From a bacterium (GTDB taxonomy: Bacteria; UBA10199; 2-02-FULL-50-16; JAJFLM01): a stretch of DNA of 64,000 bases. A program made the position numbers and the translations under genes. Under the pieces are notes generated by a model, which saw nothing but the letters and a program-made list of their open reading frames with translations, was not told where the DNA came from and did not search any database. Positions within the stretch are counted from its first letter, which is position 1, and every line of letters starts with the position of its first letter. The DNA lies in contig CBDCFN010000016.1 in the NCBI GenBank assembly GCA_965216315.1, positions 352,001 through 416,000 of the forward strand, written 5' to 3'. Of the stretch, positions 942-10,743 are shown in pieces.

Positions 942-1610
942 ATGACTGAAATCATTAAACGCGATGATCCCGAAGGACAGCTCAAAGTGAAGGAAACGGA
1001 GACGTTCAGTCCGAGCCACTTCGTGCCGTCACGGGGGGTCCTCTCCAAAGACGTCGTCGGGGCCCGAGACGAGGCCGCACGGCTCATTGCCGAGGCGCGC
1101 GTGGAAGGACAACGCGTCATTGAGCAGGCGCGTCAACTCAAAGAGCGCATGACCGCCCAGGTCGAGCAGGAGAGAAAAAAAGGTTACGCCATTGGTCGTG
1201 AAGAGGGCCTGGGCCAGGTGACGGAACTGATGGCCACGGCGACGGCCGAGCGCGAAAAGATGCTCCAGGCGGCCGAACCCGAAGTCGTTCGGATGGTCTT
1301 CCAGATCGTTGAAAAGATACTCGGTGACGCGGTCGACCGCGGGGCCATTGTCGCCGTCGTGCAGCAGGCCCTGACCGAAGCCATCGGCGAACGGATCACG
1401 GTTCGGGTGCATCCCGACGATTTGGACAAAGTCCGCTTGGCCGAGCCCCAGCTCAAAGAGCGGCTCCAAAATATCAAATCTCTGGTCACCGTTGCAGACG
1501 AAGGGATGGAAAAAGGGGGATGCAGCGTGGATACGGAAGTTGGGACAATTGACGCCCAGCTCAGCACGCAGATGGCGGCGATCAAAAAATCCTTAGGATT
1601 GGCGGATTAA
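942..1610 (+). CDS. sctL: T3SS stator SctL (FliH/YscL family)
   Basis: GYAIGREEG repeats, VRVHPDD, GGCSVDTEVGTIDA motifs; precedes the ATPase. Start moved to ATG 942. Confidence 0.88.
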   Translation: MTEIIKRDDPEGQLKVKETETFSPSHFVPSRGVLSKDVVGARDEAARLIAEARVEGQRVIEQARQLKERMTAQVEQERKKGYAIGREEGLGQVTELMATATAEREKMLQAAEPEVVRMVFQIVEKILGDAVDRGAIVAVVQQALTEAIGERITVRVHPDDLDKVRLAEPQLKERLQNIKSLVTVADEGMEKGGCSVDTEVGTIDAQLSTQMAAIKKSLGLAD

Positions 1611-6039: not shown

Positions 6040-6365
6040 TGACGTTTTGGGTCTTAGGAGCGGCGACGAGTACGGATGCAACCGTGGCGGCGTCCGAGCT
6101 CGATTACAGCGGGCTTTTCATCAAGATGGTCATTTTACTCATCTTGATTGTCGTAATGGGCTTCGTGTTGATGCGCTATTTAGGTCACTCCGCCAAGGCC
6201 CGGGGACGGGGTTCGGGGGCGCATTTTGAACTGATTTCCTGGTTTCGCTTGGAGCCCAAAAAGACGGTTTATTTGCTCAAGATCGGCAAACGAATCTTTG
6301 CCGTCGGGTCAGGAGACTCACAACTTAACCTGCTAGCGGAGATTGATGCGAGTGATCTGGAATAA
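6036..6365 (+). CDS. fliO: FliO-like export-gate assembly protein
   Basis: One TM helix followed by a beta domain LEPKKTVYLLKIGKRIFAVG..LNLLAEI; between fliN and fliP. Confidence 0.75.
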   Translation: MMTFWVLGAATSTDATVAASELDYSGLFIKMVILLILIVVMGFVLMRYLGHSAKARGRGSGAHFELISWFRLEPKKTVYLLKIGKRIFAVGSGDSQLNLLAEIDASDLE

Positions 6366-7233
6366 ATTAGGGGGGTTGAGGGGGACTTTACTAAGCCTCT
6401 TTTTTCTCCTCCTTCCCGCCATAACGTTTGCTCAAGAGCGGATTGACCAGCCCGATGCCGGTCTCGCGCCCGAGGGGGTCAGCCGACCGCTGGTCATGCT
6501 CCTGGTCCTGGCTGGCTTGGTTCTGTTGCCCATCCTGGCCATGATGACGACGGCCTTCGTCAAATTAGTCGTCGTGATGTCGATGCTGCGCAATGCCCTC
6601 GGGACCCAACAAATTCCACCGACCCCGGTTATTACCGGACTGGCGCTCATTTTGACGATCTACATCATGGCGCCGGTCGGGGCGCAGATGTATAAGACGG
6701 CGGAAGAGACGATCCAGCAAGGGAGCAACCAGCCGCTCCTCTCGCAGACCTCGGTCAATATGTTGATGACGGCCATTAGTCAGGCCAAGGAACCGATGCG
6801 GGAGTTTCTCATCAAGCATACCCATCCGCAGGAGCAGAAACTTTTTTATCAGATCGGTCGGGTGATGATGAATGTCCCCGGGGCGGAGGAAGCCAAGGAG
6901 GTGACCGCGGAGGCGGCGACCGAGGCGGAGATCACGGCCGAGACTGCCGGAGAGGAAAAACCCGCCAAGAAGCCGAAAGAACTGAGTCCGACGGATTTCA
7001 TGGTCCTGATCCCGGCCTTTACAATCAGCGAGCTGACCGAGTCCTTTCAGATCGCCTTTATTATCTTTTTGCCCTTTTTGATCATCGACATTGTCGTGAC
7101 CAATATCCTGCTGGCCCTCGGGATGTTCATGGTGCCTCCGGTCACGATGTCCTTGCCGGTCAAGCTGCTCCTCTTCGTCATGGTCGATGGGTGGCATATC
7201 CTCACGAAGGCACTCATTACCGGTTATATGTAG
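6346..7233 (+). CDS. sctR: Export gate SctR/FliP
   Basis: TTAFVK, RNALGTQQIPP, LIPAFTISEL, FLPFLIID, LGMFMVPP, KLLLFVMVDGW. Confidence 0.95.
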   Translation: MRVIWNKLGGLRGTLLSLFFLLLPAITFAQERIDQPDAGLAPEGVSRPLVMLLVLAGLVLLPILAMMTTAFVKLVVVMSMLRNALGTQQIPPTPVITGLALILTIYIMAPVGAQMYKTAEETIQQGSNQPLLSQTSVNMLMTAISQAKEPMREFLIKHTHPQEQKLFYQIGRVMMNVPGAEEAKEVTAEAATEAEITAETAGEEKPAKKPKELSPTDFMVLIPAFTISELTESFQIAFIIFLPFLIIDIVVTNILLALGMFMVPPVTMSLPVKLLLFVMVDGWHILTKALITGYM

Positions 7234-7399
7234 GAGAGACTTTATGAGCTTCAAAACGAAATGGTTGCGAGAGAGAGCGGATTTACTCCGGTCGAACGAG
7301 CCGGTCGGGGGTTCGGGGGTGTTGGGCCAAGCACACACCCCCGTTTCGAATGATGGGTGGCATATCCTCACGAAGGCACTGATTACGGGGTACATGTAA
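7186..7399 (+). repeat. 48-bp direct duplication of the sctR 3' end (7186-7233 and 7352-7399) flanking a GC-rich hairpin element
   Basis: Both copies encode DGWHILTKALITGYM*; 5 differences, all silent (CTC/CTG, ACC/ACG, GGT/GGG, TAT/TAC, TAG/TAA). Confidence 0.95.
7244..7399 (+). CDS. 51-aa mini-ORF ending in a copy of the SctR C-terminus
   Basis: AGGAGA RBS at 7232-7237; MSFKTKWLRERADLLRSNEPVGGSGVLGQAHTPVSNDGWHILTKALITGYM*. Confidence 0.5.
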   Translation: MSFKTKWLRERADLLRSNEPVGGSGVLGQAHTPVSNDGWHILTKALITGYM

Positions 7400-7408
7400 G
7401 GAGTTTCG

Positions 7409-7675
7409 ATGGATGCCTATATAATCAGCATTTCGCGTCAAACTCTTTATCTGACCTTGATCCTCACCGCGGCGCCGGTGGGGGCCGCCTTGATCGTCGG
7501 TCTCGCCGTCAGCCTCCTGCAGGCGACGACACAGATCCAAGAGCAGACCCTGACCTTCGTCCCTAAGCTGGTCATCGTCTTCGTGCTGCTCTCGGTATTA
7601 GGACCGTGGTCGTTTTTTCAGGTGGTCGCCTTTATGAATAGCCTGATCGAGAACATCCCACAGGTGATTAAGTGA
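7409..7675 (+). CDS. sctS: Export gate SctS/FliQ
   Basis: VGLAVSLLQATTQIQEQTLTFVPKL signature. Confidence 0.95.
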   Translation: MDAYIISISRQTLYLTLILTAAPVGAALIVGLAVSLLQATTQIQEQTLTFVPKLVIVFVLLSVLGPWSFFQVVAFMNSLIENIPQVIK

Positions 7676-7689
7676 AGCGGAGGTGATCG

Positions 7690-8514
7690 ATGGAGCAAGT
7701 CCTCCAGCTGCTCGGCTTTGAAATCGATTCCGGTCCGGCGCTCATCACGATGATGCTGATTTTGACGCGCATCTTTATCATCATCAACTTGATCCCCTTT
7801 CTCTTCGGCAATCCCGTCCCTGGGCTCGTCAAGCTTGGGGCTACCTTCATTTTTGTTGTCATCTTGTTTCCGTACATCTATCCGGGGGTGCCGGAAGGGG
7901 CCTATGACAACACCCTGTTTGTCGTGACGCTCTTTGTGAAAGAGGCCTTTTATGGGTCGGTGTTGGGACTCGTTGTCTCGATGATCTTTTATGCCTTTGA
8001 TTCCGCGGGGCAGATCATCGACAACCAGCGCGGGGCCTCGATGGCCCAGATCTTTTCACCCCAGACCGGGCGCCAGGTGACGATTTTTGGGTCCTTTACC
8101 TTTCAGCTGTCGGTCGTGATGTTCTTGTCTTTCGGGGGGCACATCATGTTCTTTCAGGCCCTCGGCCAGAGCTATGCCTACCTGCCCATCTATGAGATGC
8201 CGGCGGCCGGGGTCAATTTCTACAGCACGGTGATTCACTTCATCAAGGTGACGGGGACGGTCCTCTTTATCGCTGCCCAGTTGGCGGCCCCGATCCTGAT
8301 TTCGATCTTCGTCGTCGACCTGATCCTCGGCGTCATGAACCGCATCTCGCCGGCGATCAACGTGTTGACGCTCGGTTTCGCGATTCGCGGTATCATGGGG
8401 GTACTGATCTTCTTCCTCGCCTTTACGACGATTGCCTATCAGATGAAGGTCCTGTCGATCCAGAGTCTGGAGAATGTCACCCGGACGATTCGTTTTTTGG
8501 CGACGGGCGGGTGA
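7690..8514 (+). CDS. sctT: Export gate SctT/FliR
   Basis: Multi-TM; AGQIIDNQRGA (SctT-type), DLILGVMNRISPAINV. Confidence 0.92.
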   Translation: MEQVLQLLGFEIDSGPALITMMLILTRIFIIINLIPFLFGNPVPGLVKLGATFIFVVILFPYIYPGVPEGAYDNTLFVVTLFVKEAFYGSVLGLVVSMIFYAFDSAGQIIDNQRGASMAQIFSPQTGRQVTIFGSFTFQLSVVMFLSFGGHIMFFQALGQSYAYLPIYEMPAAGVNFYSTVIHFIKVTGTVLFIAAQLAAPILISIFVVDLILGVMNRISPAINVLTLGFAIRGIMGVLIFFLAFTTIAYQMKVLSIQSLENVTRTIRFLATGG

Positions 8515-8589: not shown

Positions 8590-10743
8590 ATGGCTTATTT
8601 TATGGCGGGGGGGATTGCCACGACTCAGCTTGCGTCGGCTGGTGTCCCTGCCCTGAATTCAGGAATTTTATCAGCCCAGTTGCTCAGCCAACCGGCGGTC
8701 TTCGGCGAAATGGCGCCCGGAGCCCCGTTGGCCCTGTCGCTGCAAAGCCCTTATTCCCTGCAACGAACCCAGGCCCGCGAGAATGCCGCGACCGACGCGA
8801 CCTTTCAGGCCGCCGTTCAATTGTTGGACGATATTCAGCGTGGCGTTGATCCCGCGGAGGGAACGGCCGCCGCGTCATTGGATCGCGCTCGTGCGGCGAC
8901 CTTTGTCAGCCGCCTCCAGCGCGAGATCGATCAGGCCTTAGCGCAGACCGCACTCGGTGACCTGGCGGAACCGCTCCGCCAAATAATGACGCAGCATCCG
9001 GAGTTGGCGACTGCCGACCTGGCGACCTGGCGGGAAAATGACTTAGGCCGTAACTTTATCGAGCGCGTCAAAAATCTCTATCGTGAGCAATATTTAGGTT
9101 TTAGCGCCTTTCGTGCAACGACGCAGCTTCCCGGGACGGAGCAGGTTGCCGCCTTGGAAAATGCGGTGCGGGCGATCTATGGCGACGCCGGCCAGGCGCT
9201 GCTCTCCGAGCTGGCGCAAGAAAATCTCAGTGAACTCTTACAACGCGAGAGCTTGGCCGAGCGGGTTTCGCCGGAGGTGTTAGCCAGGCTTTTCCCCGCG
9301 GGACAGCCGCCGTTGACCGAGCGGTACCAAAAAATGGGTCACATGGCCCTGTTTGCGCGCTTTGTCGTGACGCAGCGTCAGTTCATGGAATCCCTCGTCG
9401 GTTCCCCGGAGCGCGTCGAACTCTTTTGGACCTTGCGTGGCTTGGAACTAGAGATGTCGCGACGGGATGATTTCGAGTCGGATGCGTTCAAGACCTTGAT
9501 GCGGCGGGTCCAGATGCCGGACTTAAGCCCCGTTGACCGGAGCCGTTATTTCGCCCTCCAAGAGGCTGTGGCCAAGAGTGGGGCGAATCCGGATCCAGCC
9601 CTCCAGGCGCAAGTCACCGAAGCGCTCCATTATTTTTCTCAGCGGACCGGTGAAACCGATTTAGCAACGGATGCTGGCCAGCATTTTGCCTACCGGGATG
9701 TCGTGCAACAGGTGGCGCTCCTGGCGCTCCGCGTCGGCGTCTCGGCGGAGGACATCAGACGGGAGACCAGCGGACAGGGGACGGCCCCATCGAATGAGCC
9801 GGTGACGCTCCAGCAGATTTATGACGGCACCCAGGTCGTGACCCTTGACGCACTGCCACCGGAAATAAAGGACATCCTTCGCGCCACGGGCCAGTGGGAT
9901 CTCGTCAATCAGGCGACGCGGCGGGTCATCCTCATGCCGGAGATCGCCTCGACGGACTACGTCAAGATGCTGGTCGGCTCGGCACCGAGCGGCCGGGGCT
10001 ATTTTGCCGACGGAACCCTGGTGATCTCGACCGCCCCGGACGGGCTGCGCTCACCGGTCTGGCGCATTGCCGGGTTGATTGCCCATGAAGCGGCGCATCT
10101 GCGCTCTTTGAATGGGATTATGGACAACCCGCAAGAGCTGATGGGAATGACCTCGAATGTACCTCAAGAGCGGGAGGCCTATGCCTGGGAGTCGAAGTTT
10201 TATCGGAGCTTTCTCAGTCGCTTTGGATCCCGCCTCAATGACGCGGATCGCGCCGCCATTGAGCAAACCGTTTTCAATACCGAGTCCATCGTCTATGCGA
10301 CCAATCTGCTCTTGAGCCATTCATTAGAGGACCTGGAGCCGGGGCGTGGGCTGCAGGCCGATCTGGAAATGCGGCGGTATGGCGGGCTGACCGTCGGGCA
10401 GTTGGATATCAATAGTTATCCGGAGCGGTTGCGGGACTTGATCGGGAGGATTGAGTTTAGTGGGGTCGACGGCATCCATCTCAGTAATTTGCGTTCCCGG
10501 CTGCGGCGTCGGATCGAAGATCTCGAACGGGCGCTCCAGGCGTCGCTACGGTTTCAACGCGAAGAGTTGGAGGCGCTGCGTCGGCAGACCGGATCCGACG
10601 CGCTCAGTCCCGAGGCGATTGCCGCCTTTGAGCAGCAGTTGACCGAGATGCCGGACGGGATCCGTCGGAGCCTTGAGGCCTATCGGCGGCAGTTTGGGTT
10701 GTTGGGGCAGGATAACGGGCATGCCGCGGTCAAACTTACCTAA
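8590..10743 (+). CDS. Hypothetical helical protein with HExxH zinc-metalloprotease motif; candidate T3SS effector
   Basis: LIAHEAAHLR (HEAAH at 10084-10098) and downstream EREAY; no signal peptide seen; follows sctT. Confidence 0.55.
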   Translation: MAYFMAGGIATTQLASAGVPALNSGILSAQLLSQPAVFGEMAPGAPLALSLQSPYSLQRTQARENAATDATFQAAVQLLDDIQRGVDPAEGTAAASLDRARAATFVSRLQREIDQALAQTALGDLAEPLRQIMTQHPELATADLATWRENDLGRNFIERVKNLYREQYLGFSAFRATTQLPGTEQVAALENAVRAIYGDAGQALLSELAQENLSELLQRESLAERVSPEVLARLFPAGQPPLTERYQKMGHMALFARFVVTQRQFMESLVGSPERVELFWTLRGLELEMSRRDDFESDAFKTLMRRVQMPDLSPVDRSRYFALQEAVAKSGANPDPALQAQVTEALHYFSQRTGETDLATDAGQHFAYRDVVQQVALLALRVGVSAEDIRRETSGQGTAPSNEPVTLQQIYDGTQVVTLDALPPEIKDILRATGQWDLVNQATRRVILMPEIASTDYVKMLVGSAPSGRGYFADGTLVISTAPDGLRSPVWRIAGLIAHEAAHLRSLNGIMDNPQELMGMTSNVPQEREAYAWESKFYRSFLSRFGSRLNDADRAAIEQTVFNTESIVYATNLLLSHSLEDLEPGRGLQADLEMRRYGGLTVGQLDINSYPERLRDLIGRIEFSGVDGIHLSNLRSRLRRRIEDLERALQASLRFQREELEALRRQTGSDALSPEAIAAFEQQLTEMPDGIRRSLEAYRRQFGLLGQDNGHAAVKLT

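Follow-up and report, generated by a model that had tools for sequence, protein, structure and literature searches.

The closest described counterparts of the locus reported here are the mycobacterial interspersed repetitive units (MIRU) and the prophage e14 of Escherichia coli K-12. The locus is the junction between two export-gate genes, fliP and fliQ, in a 64,000-nucleotide stretch of bacterial DNA (hereafter the window) from contig CBDCFN010000016.1. The end of fliP occurs twice at this junction, and the spacer between the two copies is one member of a dispersed element of about 95 nt, here called E, a point that an earlier reading of the same DNA without database searches (the sequence-only reading) had missed.

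MIRU are intercistronic repeats of 40-100 bp that are transcribed with the operon and carry small open reading frames (ORFs) overlapping the flanking stop and start codons (PMC3184786, accessible part). They are the nearest to E in behaviour, the likeness being one of description and not of sequence comparison: both are dispersed between operon genes, both have a small ORF of their own that ends on a flanking stop or start codon, and both show filled and empty sites as well as tandem copies. In contrast to MIRU, E contains two hairpins with strong covariation, adjoins tRNA ends and is accompanied by gene-end duplications of 23-75 nt, whereas MIRU have tetranucleotide direct repeats and no such gene-end duplications are mentioned in the accessible part of PMC3184786.

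Prophage e14 replaces the 3' end of icd and leaves a displaced fragment, icdC, and the two ends differ mostly by synonymous changes (including changes of the TTA to CTG type) and by a few conservative replacements (PMC13626634, accessible part). The fliP case is similar in that an intact gene, an insert and a displaced C-terminal fragment follow one another with mostly synonymous differences. An attachment-site-like identical core with a surrogate and a displaced end is also found at fliP (a 29-nt block), and the same two-part pattern occurs in 8 gene pairs. However, e14 measures about 15 kb, has its own recombination functions and uses one target, according to the same partial source, whereas the insert at fliP is about 120 nt long without any gene and E targets many unrelated genes and tRNAs. 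An integrative element was rejected at fliP, as only 118 nt lie between the copies (7234-7351), with no integrase and with flagellar neighbours.

The REP/BIME, ERIC, Correia and RPE repeats share with E a small size, a non-coding and hairpin-forming nature, a dispersed distribution at gene boundaries or in frame within genes, and lineage-specific copy numbers (PMC3184786, accessible part). Unlike them, E lacks both terminal inverted repeats and a short target duplication of fixed length, it is oriented according to the gene that follows, and a constant distance separates its 3' end from the start codon. Indeed, a repeat search of 6300-7800 found no terminal inverted repeats at the insert ends, an alignment of 11 copies shows unlike ends, and the flanking duplications vary from 23 to 75 nt in length and are absent from 6 of the 11 copies of this genome. 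E thus shares with miniature inverted-repeat transposable elements (MITEs) many dispersed copies and filled and empty sites (genome pairs G051/G010 and G049/G036), but an assignment to the MITEs was rejected because their defining features, terminal inverted repeats and a short fixed target duplication, are missing.

The repeated end of fliP

The arrangement is best read as the footprint of an insertion of E that preserved both neighbouring genes, to which a probability of roughly 0.7 is given. All coordinates are positions of the window, and G000 designates the genome of the window, a 16-contig assembly. The last 15 codons of fliP and its stop codon (7186-7233) recur at 7352-7399, and the repeat search aligned 7186-7232 with 7352-7398 at 91% identity and a spacing of 166. 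The first 29 nt of the copies are identical (7186-7214 and 7352-7380), and five differences fall in the following 19-nt tails (7215-7233 in copy 1, 7381-7399 in copy 2), at 7215/7381, 7221/7387, 7224/7390, 7227/7393 and 7233/7399. All five are synonymous or stop-to-stop (11 identical, 5 synonymous and 0 non-synonymous codons); when five changes were placed at random, no amino-acid change arose in 0.04% of 5000 trials (P ~0.0004). The features of the junction are as follows.

6343..7233, + strand: export-gate gene of the FliP/SctR family, 296 codons if started at TTG 6343, a provisional start codon (ORF list and Pfam)
7186..7233, + strand: copy 1 (D1), last 15 codons of fliP and TAG, functional gene end (sequence, repeat search)
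7232..7246, + strand: Shine-Dalgarno (SD)-like AGGAGA (7232-7237) overlapping TAG, followed by ATG at 7244 (sequence)
7244..7399, + strand: 51-codon mini-ORF running through the probable duplicated start region, E in an arbitrary frame and copy 2 (ORF list)
7256..7355, + strand: copy of E at fliP-fliQ (covariance model R1, 92.5 bits; nhmmer core 7261-7349)
7261..7353, + strand: the 30-codon ORF of E itself, ATG to TGA, intact (ORF list)
7275..7293, + strand: hairpin 1 of E, four inner pairs 7278-7281/7287-7290, 5-nt loop (alignment, covariation)
7307..7311, + strand: unpaired G-run 3 nt 5' of hairpin 2, candidate SD-like motif (sequence; layout conserved in copies)
7315..7342, + strand: hairpin 2 of E, G+C-rich, arms 7315-7322 and 7335-7342 (alignment, covariation)
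7352..7399, + strand: copy 2 (D2), displaced and native-like end of fliP, stop TAA (sequence, repeat search)
7398..7411, + strand: SD of fliQ, AAGGAG (7398-7403), and start codon 7409-7411 (sequence)
7409..7675, + strand: fliQ/sctS-family gene (Pfam PF01313)

The sequence-only reading had described a C-terminal duplication with silent-only divergence, two stop codons each overlapping a ribosome-binding site, a G+C-rich hairpin, and a second copy that re-creates the native stop, ribosome-binding site and start before the next export-gate gene, and all of this is borne out. The second stop overlaps the AAGGAG motif, which is separated by 5 nt from the ATG of fliQ. As 7232-7246 is weakly similar to the SD and ATG of fliQ (the local alignment runs on through AGGAG with one gap), the duplication probably once extended through the fliQ start codon. 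The 51-codon mini-ORF lies inside a 70-aa ORF (7187-7399), and no Pfam family was matched by it. Continuity across both copies, a check proposed with the sequence-only reading, was also found: Logan contigs of four runs (2 samples of 1 study, possibly the source sample of this genome) cover 6700-7900, 6700-7456, 6700-7462 and 7174-7563 with 0 differences, and none of them shows a joined form without the insert.

The names sctR and sctS, given in the sequence-only reading, do not fit as well. The gene ending at 7233 matches FliP (PF00813, E-value 2.6e-62) and the flanking genes match FliM, FliN, FliO, FliQ, FliR and a FliK-like domain, so that the cluster is flagellar in type and fliP and fliQ are the better names. 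Since the FliP match spans residues 56-291 against a model of 191 positions, the protein carries about 40 additional residues, acidic and Ala/Glu/Lys-rich, within a loop at about 6880-7000 of the window. Furthermore, a 717-codon ORF without a Pfam family (8590-10743) follows fliR, where a gene of the FlhB/SctU type is usual.

Element E, its structure and its placement

When the genome was searched with 7186-7409, the middle part alone matched 8 other places at 75-80% identity, and an nhmmer profile then gave 11 full copies of E and some partial ones. Within the class, covariance model R1 detected E in 38 of 93 genomes, with 1 to 35 copies each, and the other 55 were without it. E is organised from 5' to 3' as follows: a motif around GTGAGCGA (often after an ATG), hairpin 1, the G-run, 3 nt, hairpin 2 and an A/T-rich tail. 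In an alignment of 61 copies from 30 genomes, 96.1% of the cells are paired and 18 of 22 pairs, including all 7 of hairpin 1, show compensatory changes, against 36-53% paired cells in slid controls, although the alignment was fitted to the covariance model and favours structure somewhat. Folding of 7225-7415 as one RNA was not distinctive (z-score -0.55); the structure of E is supported by covariation and not by folding energy.

A cmscan of 8 E loci against Rfam 15, with E-values up to 1, returned no family for E and only a tRNA and chance hits, and a small number of literature searches, which constitute weak evidence of absence, found no paper on E. An intrinsic terminator was rejected, as there is no G+C-rich hairpin followed by a T run and no more than 3-4 T occur in the tail behind hairpin 2; likewise, a pattern scan of 6900-7700 for terminator-like and promoter sequences found 0 sites. 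Several further observations concern the element itself. Tandem pairs of E, 0-160 nt apart as in variable-number repeats, occur in G024, G008, G087 and G049. At locus L044 (G051:C168, element 1501-1597, minus strand), hairpin 1 is lengthened, and the outer part of its 5' arm is supplied by the final new-tail codons and the stop codon of the upstream gene, so that gene end and E are structurally interlocked. Public contigs with the hairpin-1 motif are labelled as three phyla-level taxa, and at least some of these labels of metagenome-assembled genomes are unreliable.

E always has the orientation of the following gene. Hairpin 2 is closed by a C-run, and the distance from this run to a following ATG is exactly 6 nt in 39 of 87 copies and 4-9 nt in 13 more; the remaining copies precede tRNA genes, an ordinary SD with ATG, or other sequence. 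The genes that follow, named by eye from N-terminal sequences without a family search, are unrelated housekeeping genes, including efp, hisA, ffh, nuoA, gatC, mraZ, thyA, purF and secG. The stop of the small ORF of E overlaps the following ATG (as ATGA or TAATG) in the copies before efp, an ABC-F gene and a kinase-like gene and in many copies elsewhere. As the 5' motif overlaps the TGA of the upstream gene in G087, G049 and G008, E runs in effect from stop codon to start codon. Furthermore, the layout of G-run, 3 nt, hairpin, 6 nt and ATG is conserved while the interior of the hairpin changes; this spacing suggests that, with hairpin 2 folded, E may itself offer the start codon an SD-like G-run at a usable distance.

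Placement next to tRNA genes (predicted with ARAGORN) is equally precise. At 15 of 20 tRNA-adjacent loci, the 3' end of E adjoins the 5' end of a tRNA in the same orientation, and at no fewer than 2 (at least 2 of 20) it adjoins the 3' end of a convergent tRNA. Convergent cases include L043 (G040) and L257/L253 (G008), with tRNAs for Leu and Val, and in G008 a 32-nt piece of the convergent tRNA is repeated after a second E. A separate observation is that efp and hisA are each immediately preceded by E in this genome (G000:C16:1328670-1328758 for efp; G000:C15:136374-136419, partial, for hisA) and likewise in G017, which belongs to another family (L133, L130). These are either very old conserved sites or sites that were repeatedly targeted, and the genome-specific sequence of hairpin 2 points to turnover or concerted evolution.

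Gene-end duplication and the probable insertion of E

The duplication at fliP is not an isolated case. In 5 of the 11 full copies of this genome, the last 10-24 codons and the stop of the upstream gene are present on both sides of E; the genes concerned are fliP, a thiolase gene, mnmE, an inositol-phosphate-synthase-like gene and an ABC permease gene (names other than fliP were read from protein ends without a family search). No duplication accompanies the remaining 6 copies, which lie behind divergent promoters or ahead of tRNAs. The same architecture occurs in G025 (two loci), G038, G051, G043, and in G049 and G087 at the same gltD-like gene, and a cysteine desulfurase gene is also among the genes with a duplicated end. 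tRNA genes are affected as well: in G028, E is followed by a second copy of the 3' 54 nt of tRNA-Thr, in which the identity stops exactly at the tRNA 3' end, and in G049, the intact tRNA-Pro gene lies after E while a copy of its 5' 29 nt precedes E. The length of the flanking duplications (23-75 nt) varies by site. E is open in 2-3 frames and the frame read through it differs between copies; no stop codon interrupts E in the frame of the displaced copy in 8 of 12 protein-gene cases (5/5 in this genome and 3/7 elsewhere, one of the latter, L044, being poorly framed by the script), and in the young gltD-like cases that frame is closed by the stop of E itself. As judged from its recurrence, gene-end duplication is a property of E.

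Filled and empty sites were found among relatives, although none of the genomes compared belongs to the genus of the window genome. Comparison of orthologous loci, which had been proposed with the sequence-only reading, gave 19 fliP-fliQ junctions of relatives, and none of the 19 has the duplication. Their gaps are mostly 2-25 nt long; in the closest relative, the metagenome contig L136 (FliP 74% identity), the fliP stop overlaps the fliQ start. Four junctions carry unrelated palindromic inserts of 50-187 nt without gene-end duplication (G031, L022; G051, L012; G037, L023; G058, L011), of which the one in G051 resembles the half of E made up of the G-run and hairpin 2. At the other four loci of this genome, G001, G002 and G003 have neither E nor a duplication. 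Within single genera, one site is filled in G051 and empty in G010, and another is filled in G049, empty in G036 and occupied in G043 by a decayed tRNA fragment and a remnant of the E tail.

The duplications can also be placed in a series of ages. Young ones are long, and their two copies have hardly diverged: 73 of 75 nt agree in G087 and 38 of 39 nt in G043, and in G049 there are 3 differences over about 75 nt. In G008, which is congeneric with G087, a degenerate E directly follows the stop of the same gene, and no more than a decayed remnant persists of the displaced copy; displaced copies have decayed in both G008 and G043. The near-identity of the young duplications and these remnants indicate that insertion duplicates host sequence in place and that displaced copies can decay.

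At fliP, we infer the following course. A single E would have inserted into a tight fliP-fliQ junction and would have left the segment from the last 15 codons of fliP to about the start of fliQ on both sides of it. The upstream copy (7186-7233) would complete FliP, and the downstream copy (7352-7399) would be the displaced native end, which supplies fliQ with its original stop, ribosome-binding site and start context. The 51-codon ORF, judged to be a by-product and not a conserved protein, would start in the duplicated start region, read E in an arbitrary frame and end in the displaced gene end. This mini-ORF may relay ribosomes across E to fliQ: ribosomes finishing FliP at 7231-7233 could restart at 7244, open hairpins 1 and 2 of E on their way to 7397-7399 and terminate there, 10 nt upstream of the start of fliQ, a gene with an SD of its own. 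Such a relay would imitate the ancestral tight coupling of L136 and most relatives. The differences would be silent because they are located in the functional upstream tail, where only synonymous changes are tolerated.

Two loci bear on which copy changed. L136 agrees with the downstream copy of fliP at all 5 differing sites, and in G051 the copy-2 tail is identical to G010 at 32/32 nt while the copy-1 tail differs at 14/36 nt, including replacements. At these two loci, therefore, the displaced copy is native-like and the functional upstream tail is the altered one, either changed or brought in.

Several points weigh against an insertion footprint of E in this form. (i) The 8 protein-gene pairs, when pooled, give proportions of synonymous and non-synonymous differences of 0.71 (pS) and 0.092 (pN), that is a pN/pS of 0.13, and each pair alone departs from random placement (P of 0.0004 or less). 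(ii) Each older pair consists of an identical block (3-29 nt) next to the 3' end of E and of a tail near synonymous saturation. Within this tail, changes affect 50-80% of the degenerate codons, and some six-fold codons have switched by more than one step. Had the displaced copy been a neutral relic, its reading would have been lost long before the functional copy reached such divergence; a simple duplication in place with subsequent neutral decay of the displaced end therefore does not fit the older pairs. (iii) The outgroups of mnmE and the thiolase gene, although saturated and too distant to decide, suggest changes in both copies. (iv) For the fliP insertion, age and polarity were judged against a single relative, with 74% protein identity. 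(v) The relay ORF is in the frame of the displaced copy in only 8 of the 12 cases. (vi) Duplications of 23-75 nt are far beyond ordinary target-site duplications. (vii) No enzyme able to move E was identified, Y1_Tnp (PF01797) being the only family tried. Genes of this family are present in 78 of the 93 genomes, unrelated to the counts of E, and the E-rich genomes G017 and G008 have no hit; a link to Y1 transposases (RAYT) was thus rejected as an obvious means of mobilisation.

Other sources of the silent excess were considered. Refreshing of the displaced copy by recombination with element-free alleles is unlikely as the sole cause, as the tails are near saturation and the block next to E is undecayed. 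Gene conversion alone was rejected since it would lead either to a small number of randomly placed differences or to replacements in the displaced copy, and a diversity-generating retroelement was rejected since the differences are not adenine-specific and no reverse transcriptase is nearby. One possibility is fast in-place change of the functional copy, the displaced copy being held by the nucleotide needs of the downstream start region; at fliQ, the displaced tail occupies the stretch 10-28 nt upstream of the ATG.

Alternative explanations and significance

The alternative that survives best, a tentative one with clearly less than even chances, is that the upstream tail (7215-7233), the spacer and E entered as one mobile unit from a diverged lineage, by recombination at the 29-nt identical block, and displaced the native end as e14 does at icd. 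Silent-only divergence would then follow from both tails being functional gene ends in their own lineages. The two-part structure of every older pair, with its heavily recoded tail, agrees with this, as do the upstream tail being the odd one at fliP and in G051 when compared with G010, and the same signature of icd and icdC (PMC13626634, accessible part). On the other hand, the body of the unit (only about 100-130 nt) leaves no room for an integrase while many unrelated genes are targeted, the young near-identical pairs of 39-75 nt show in-place duplication of host sequence by insertion, and upstream and downstream tails have lineage-specific residues in common. Furthermore, a donor search for the diverged upstream tail of G051 in the 93 class genomes, with a short query and hence low sensitivity, returned only the tail itself and the congeneric upstream region. 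Import from a related allele, as proposed in the sequence-only reading, appears to be a live explanation for the upstream tail.

It is improbable that E is immobile and was passed on vertically as a leader acting in cis (for example a ribosome-binding cassette with a structure, or a processing site, directly upstream of start codons and tRNA 5' ends), the duplications having arisen from local rearrangements. The fixed distance between C-run and ATG, the tRNA genes with E at their 5' end, the shared positions before efp and hisA in G000 and G017, and a layout that is kept while the interior of the hairpin changes would all suit a leader, but congeneric genomes have filled and empty sites, copy numbers range from 0 to 35 per genome with 55 of 93 genomes having none, tandem arrays exist and the downstream genes are unrelated. 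Leader function and mobility of E are not mutually exclusive.

The sequence-only reading had also raised protein-level constraint and a gate-interacting micropeptide; that the 51-aa product mimics the FliP C-terminus at the export gate and is kept by protein-level selection is now highly improbable. Despite the good SD and ATG at 7232-7246, an ORF that stays open through E in all 5 duplication cases of this genome and a tail without amino-acid differences, the same pattern occurs at enzyme, permease and tRNA genes, the frame used in E (open in 2-3 frames anyway) varies by copy and is closed in the young gltD-like cases, G008 and G043 have displaced copies that decayed, and 0 of the 19 junctions of relatives have the duplication. 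A functional small-protein gene was accordingly rejected, with no conserved peptide or frame among copies or relatives and no Pfam family. Finally, an assembly chimera of two strains joined through the 29-nt block, which a 16-contig assembly with copies that differ as the alleles of two strains would might suggest, is hardly credible, because the independently assembled contigs of the four runs cross both copies and E without a difference or an alternative joint and the architecture recurs at 4 other loci of this genome and in 7 other genomes.

A broader and rather unlikely proposal, ranked somewhat below import of the upstream tail, is that E represents a new kind of miniature mobile cassette, running from stop codon to start codon, which would insert at exact gene boundaries (start codons, stop codons and tRNA ends), protect its neighbours through gene-end duplication and later travel between lineages with a recoded surrogate end, as a gene-less 150-nt version of an integrative element, and which would also be a portable translation-start module.

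In summary, E is a family of undescribed structured repeats, found in about 40% of the sampled genomes of one bacterial class, which can enter tightly coupled operons without breaking either neighbour and is placed with nucleotide precision ahead of start codons and tRNA genes. With E, the choice of boundaries by small non-autonomous elements, the origin of long target duplications and the reason why displaced gene ends can look selected may be studied in a natural system. For annotation, short ORFs that end in a copy of the C-terminus of the upstream protein are to be regarded as insertion scars and not as micropeptide genes.

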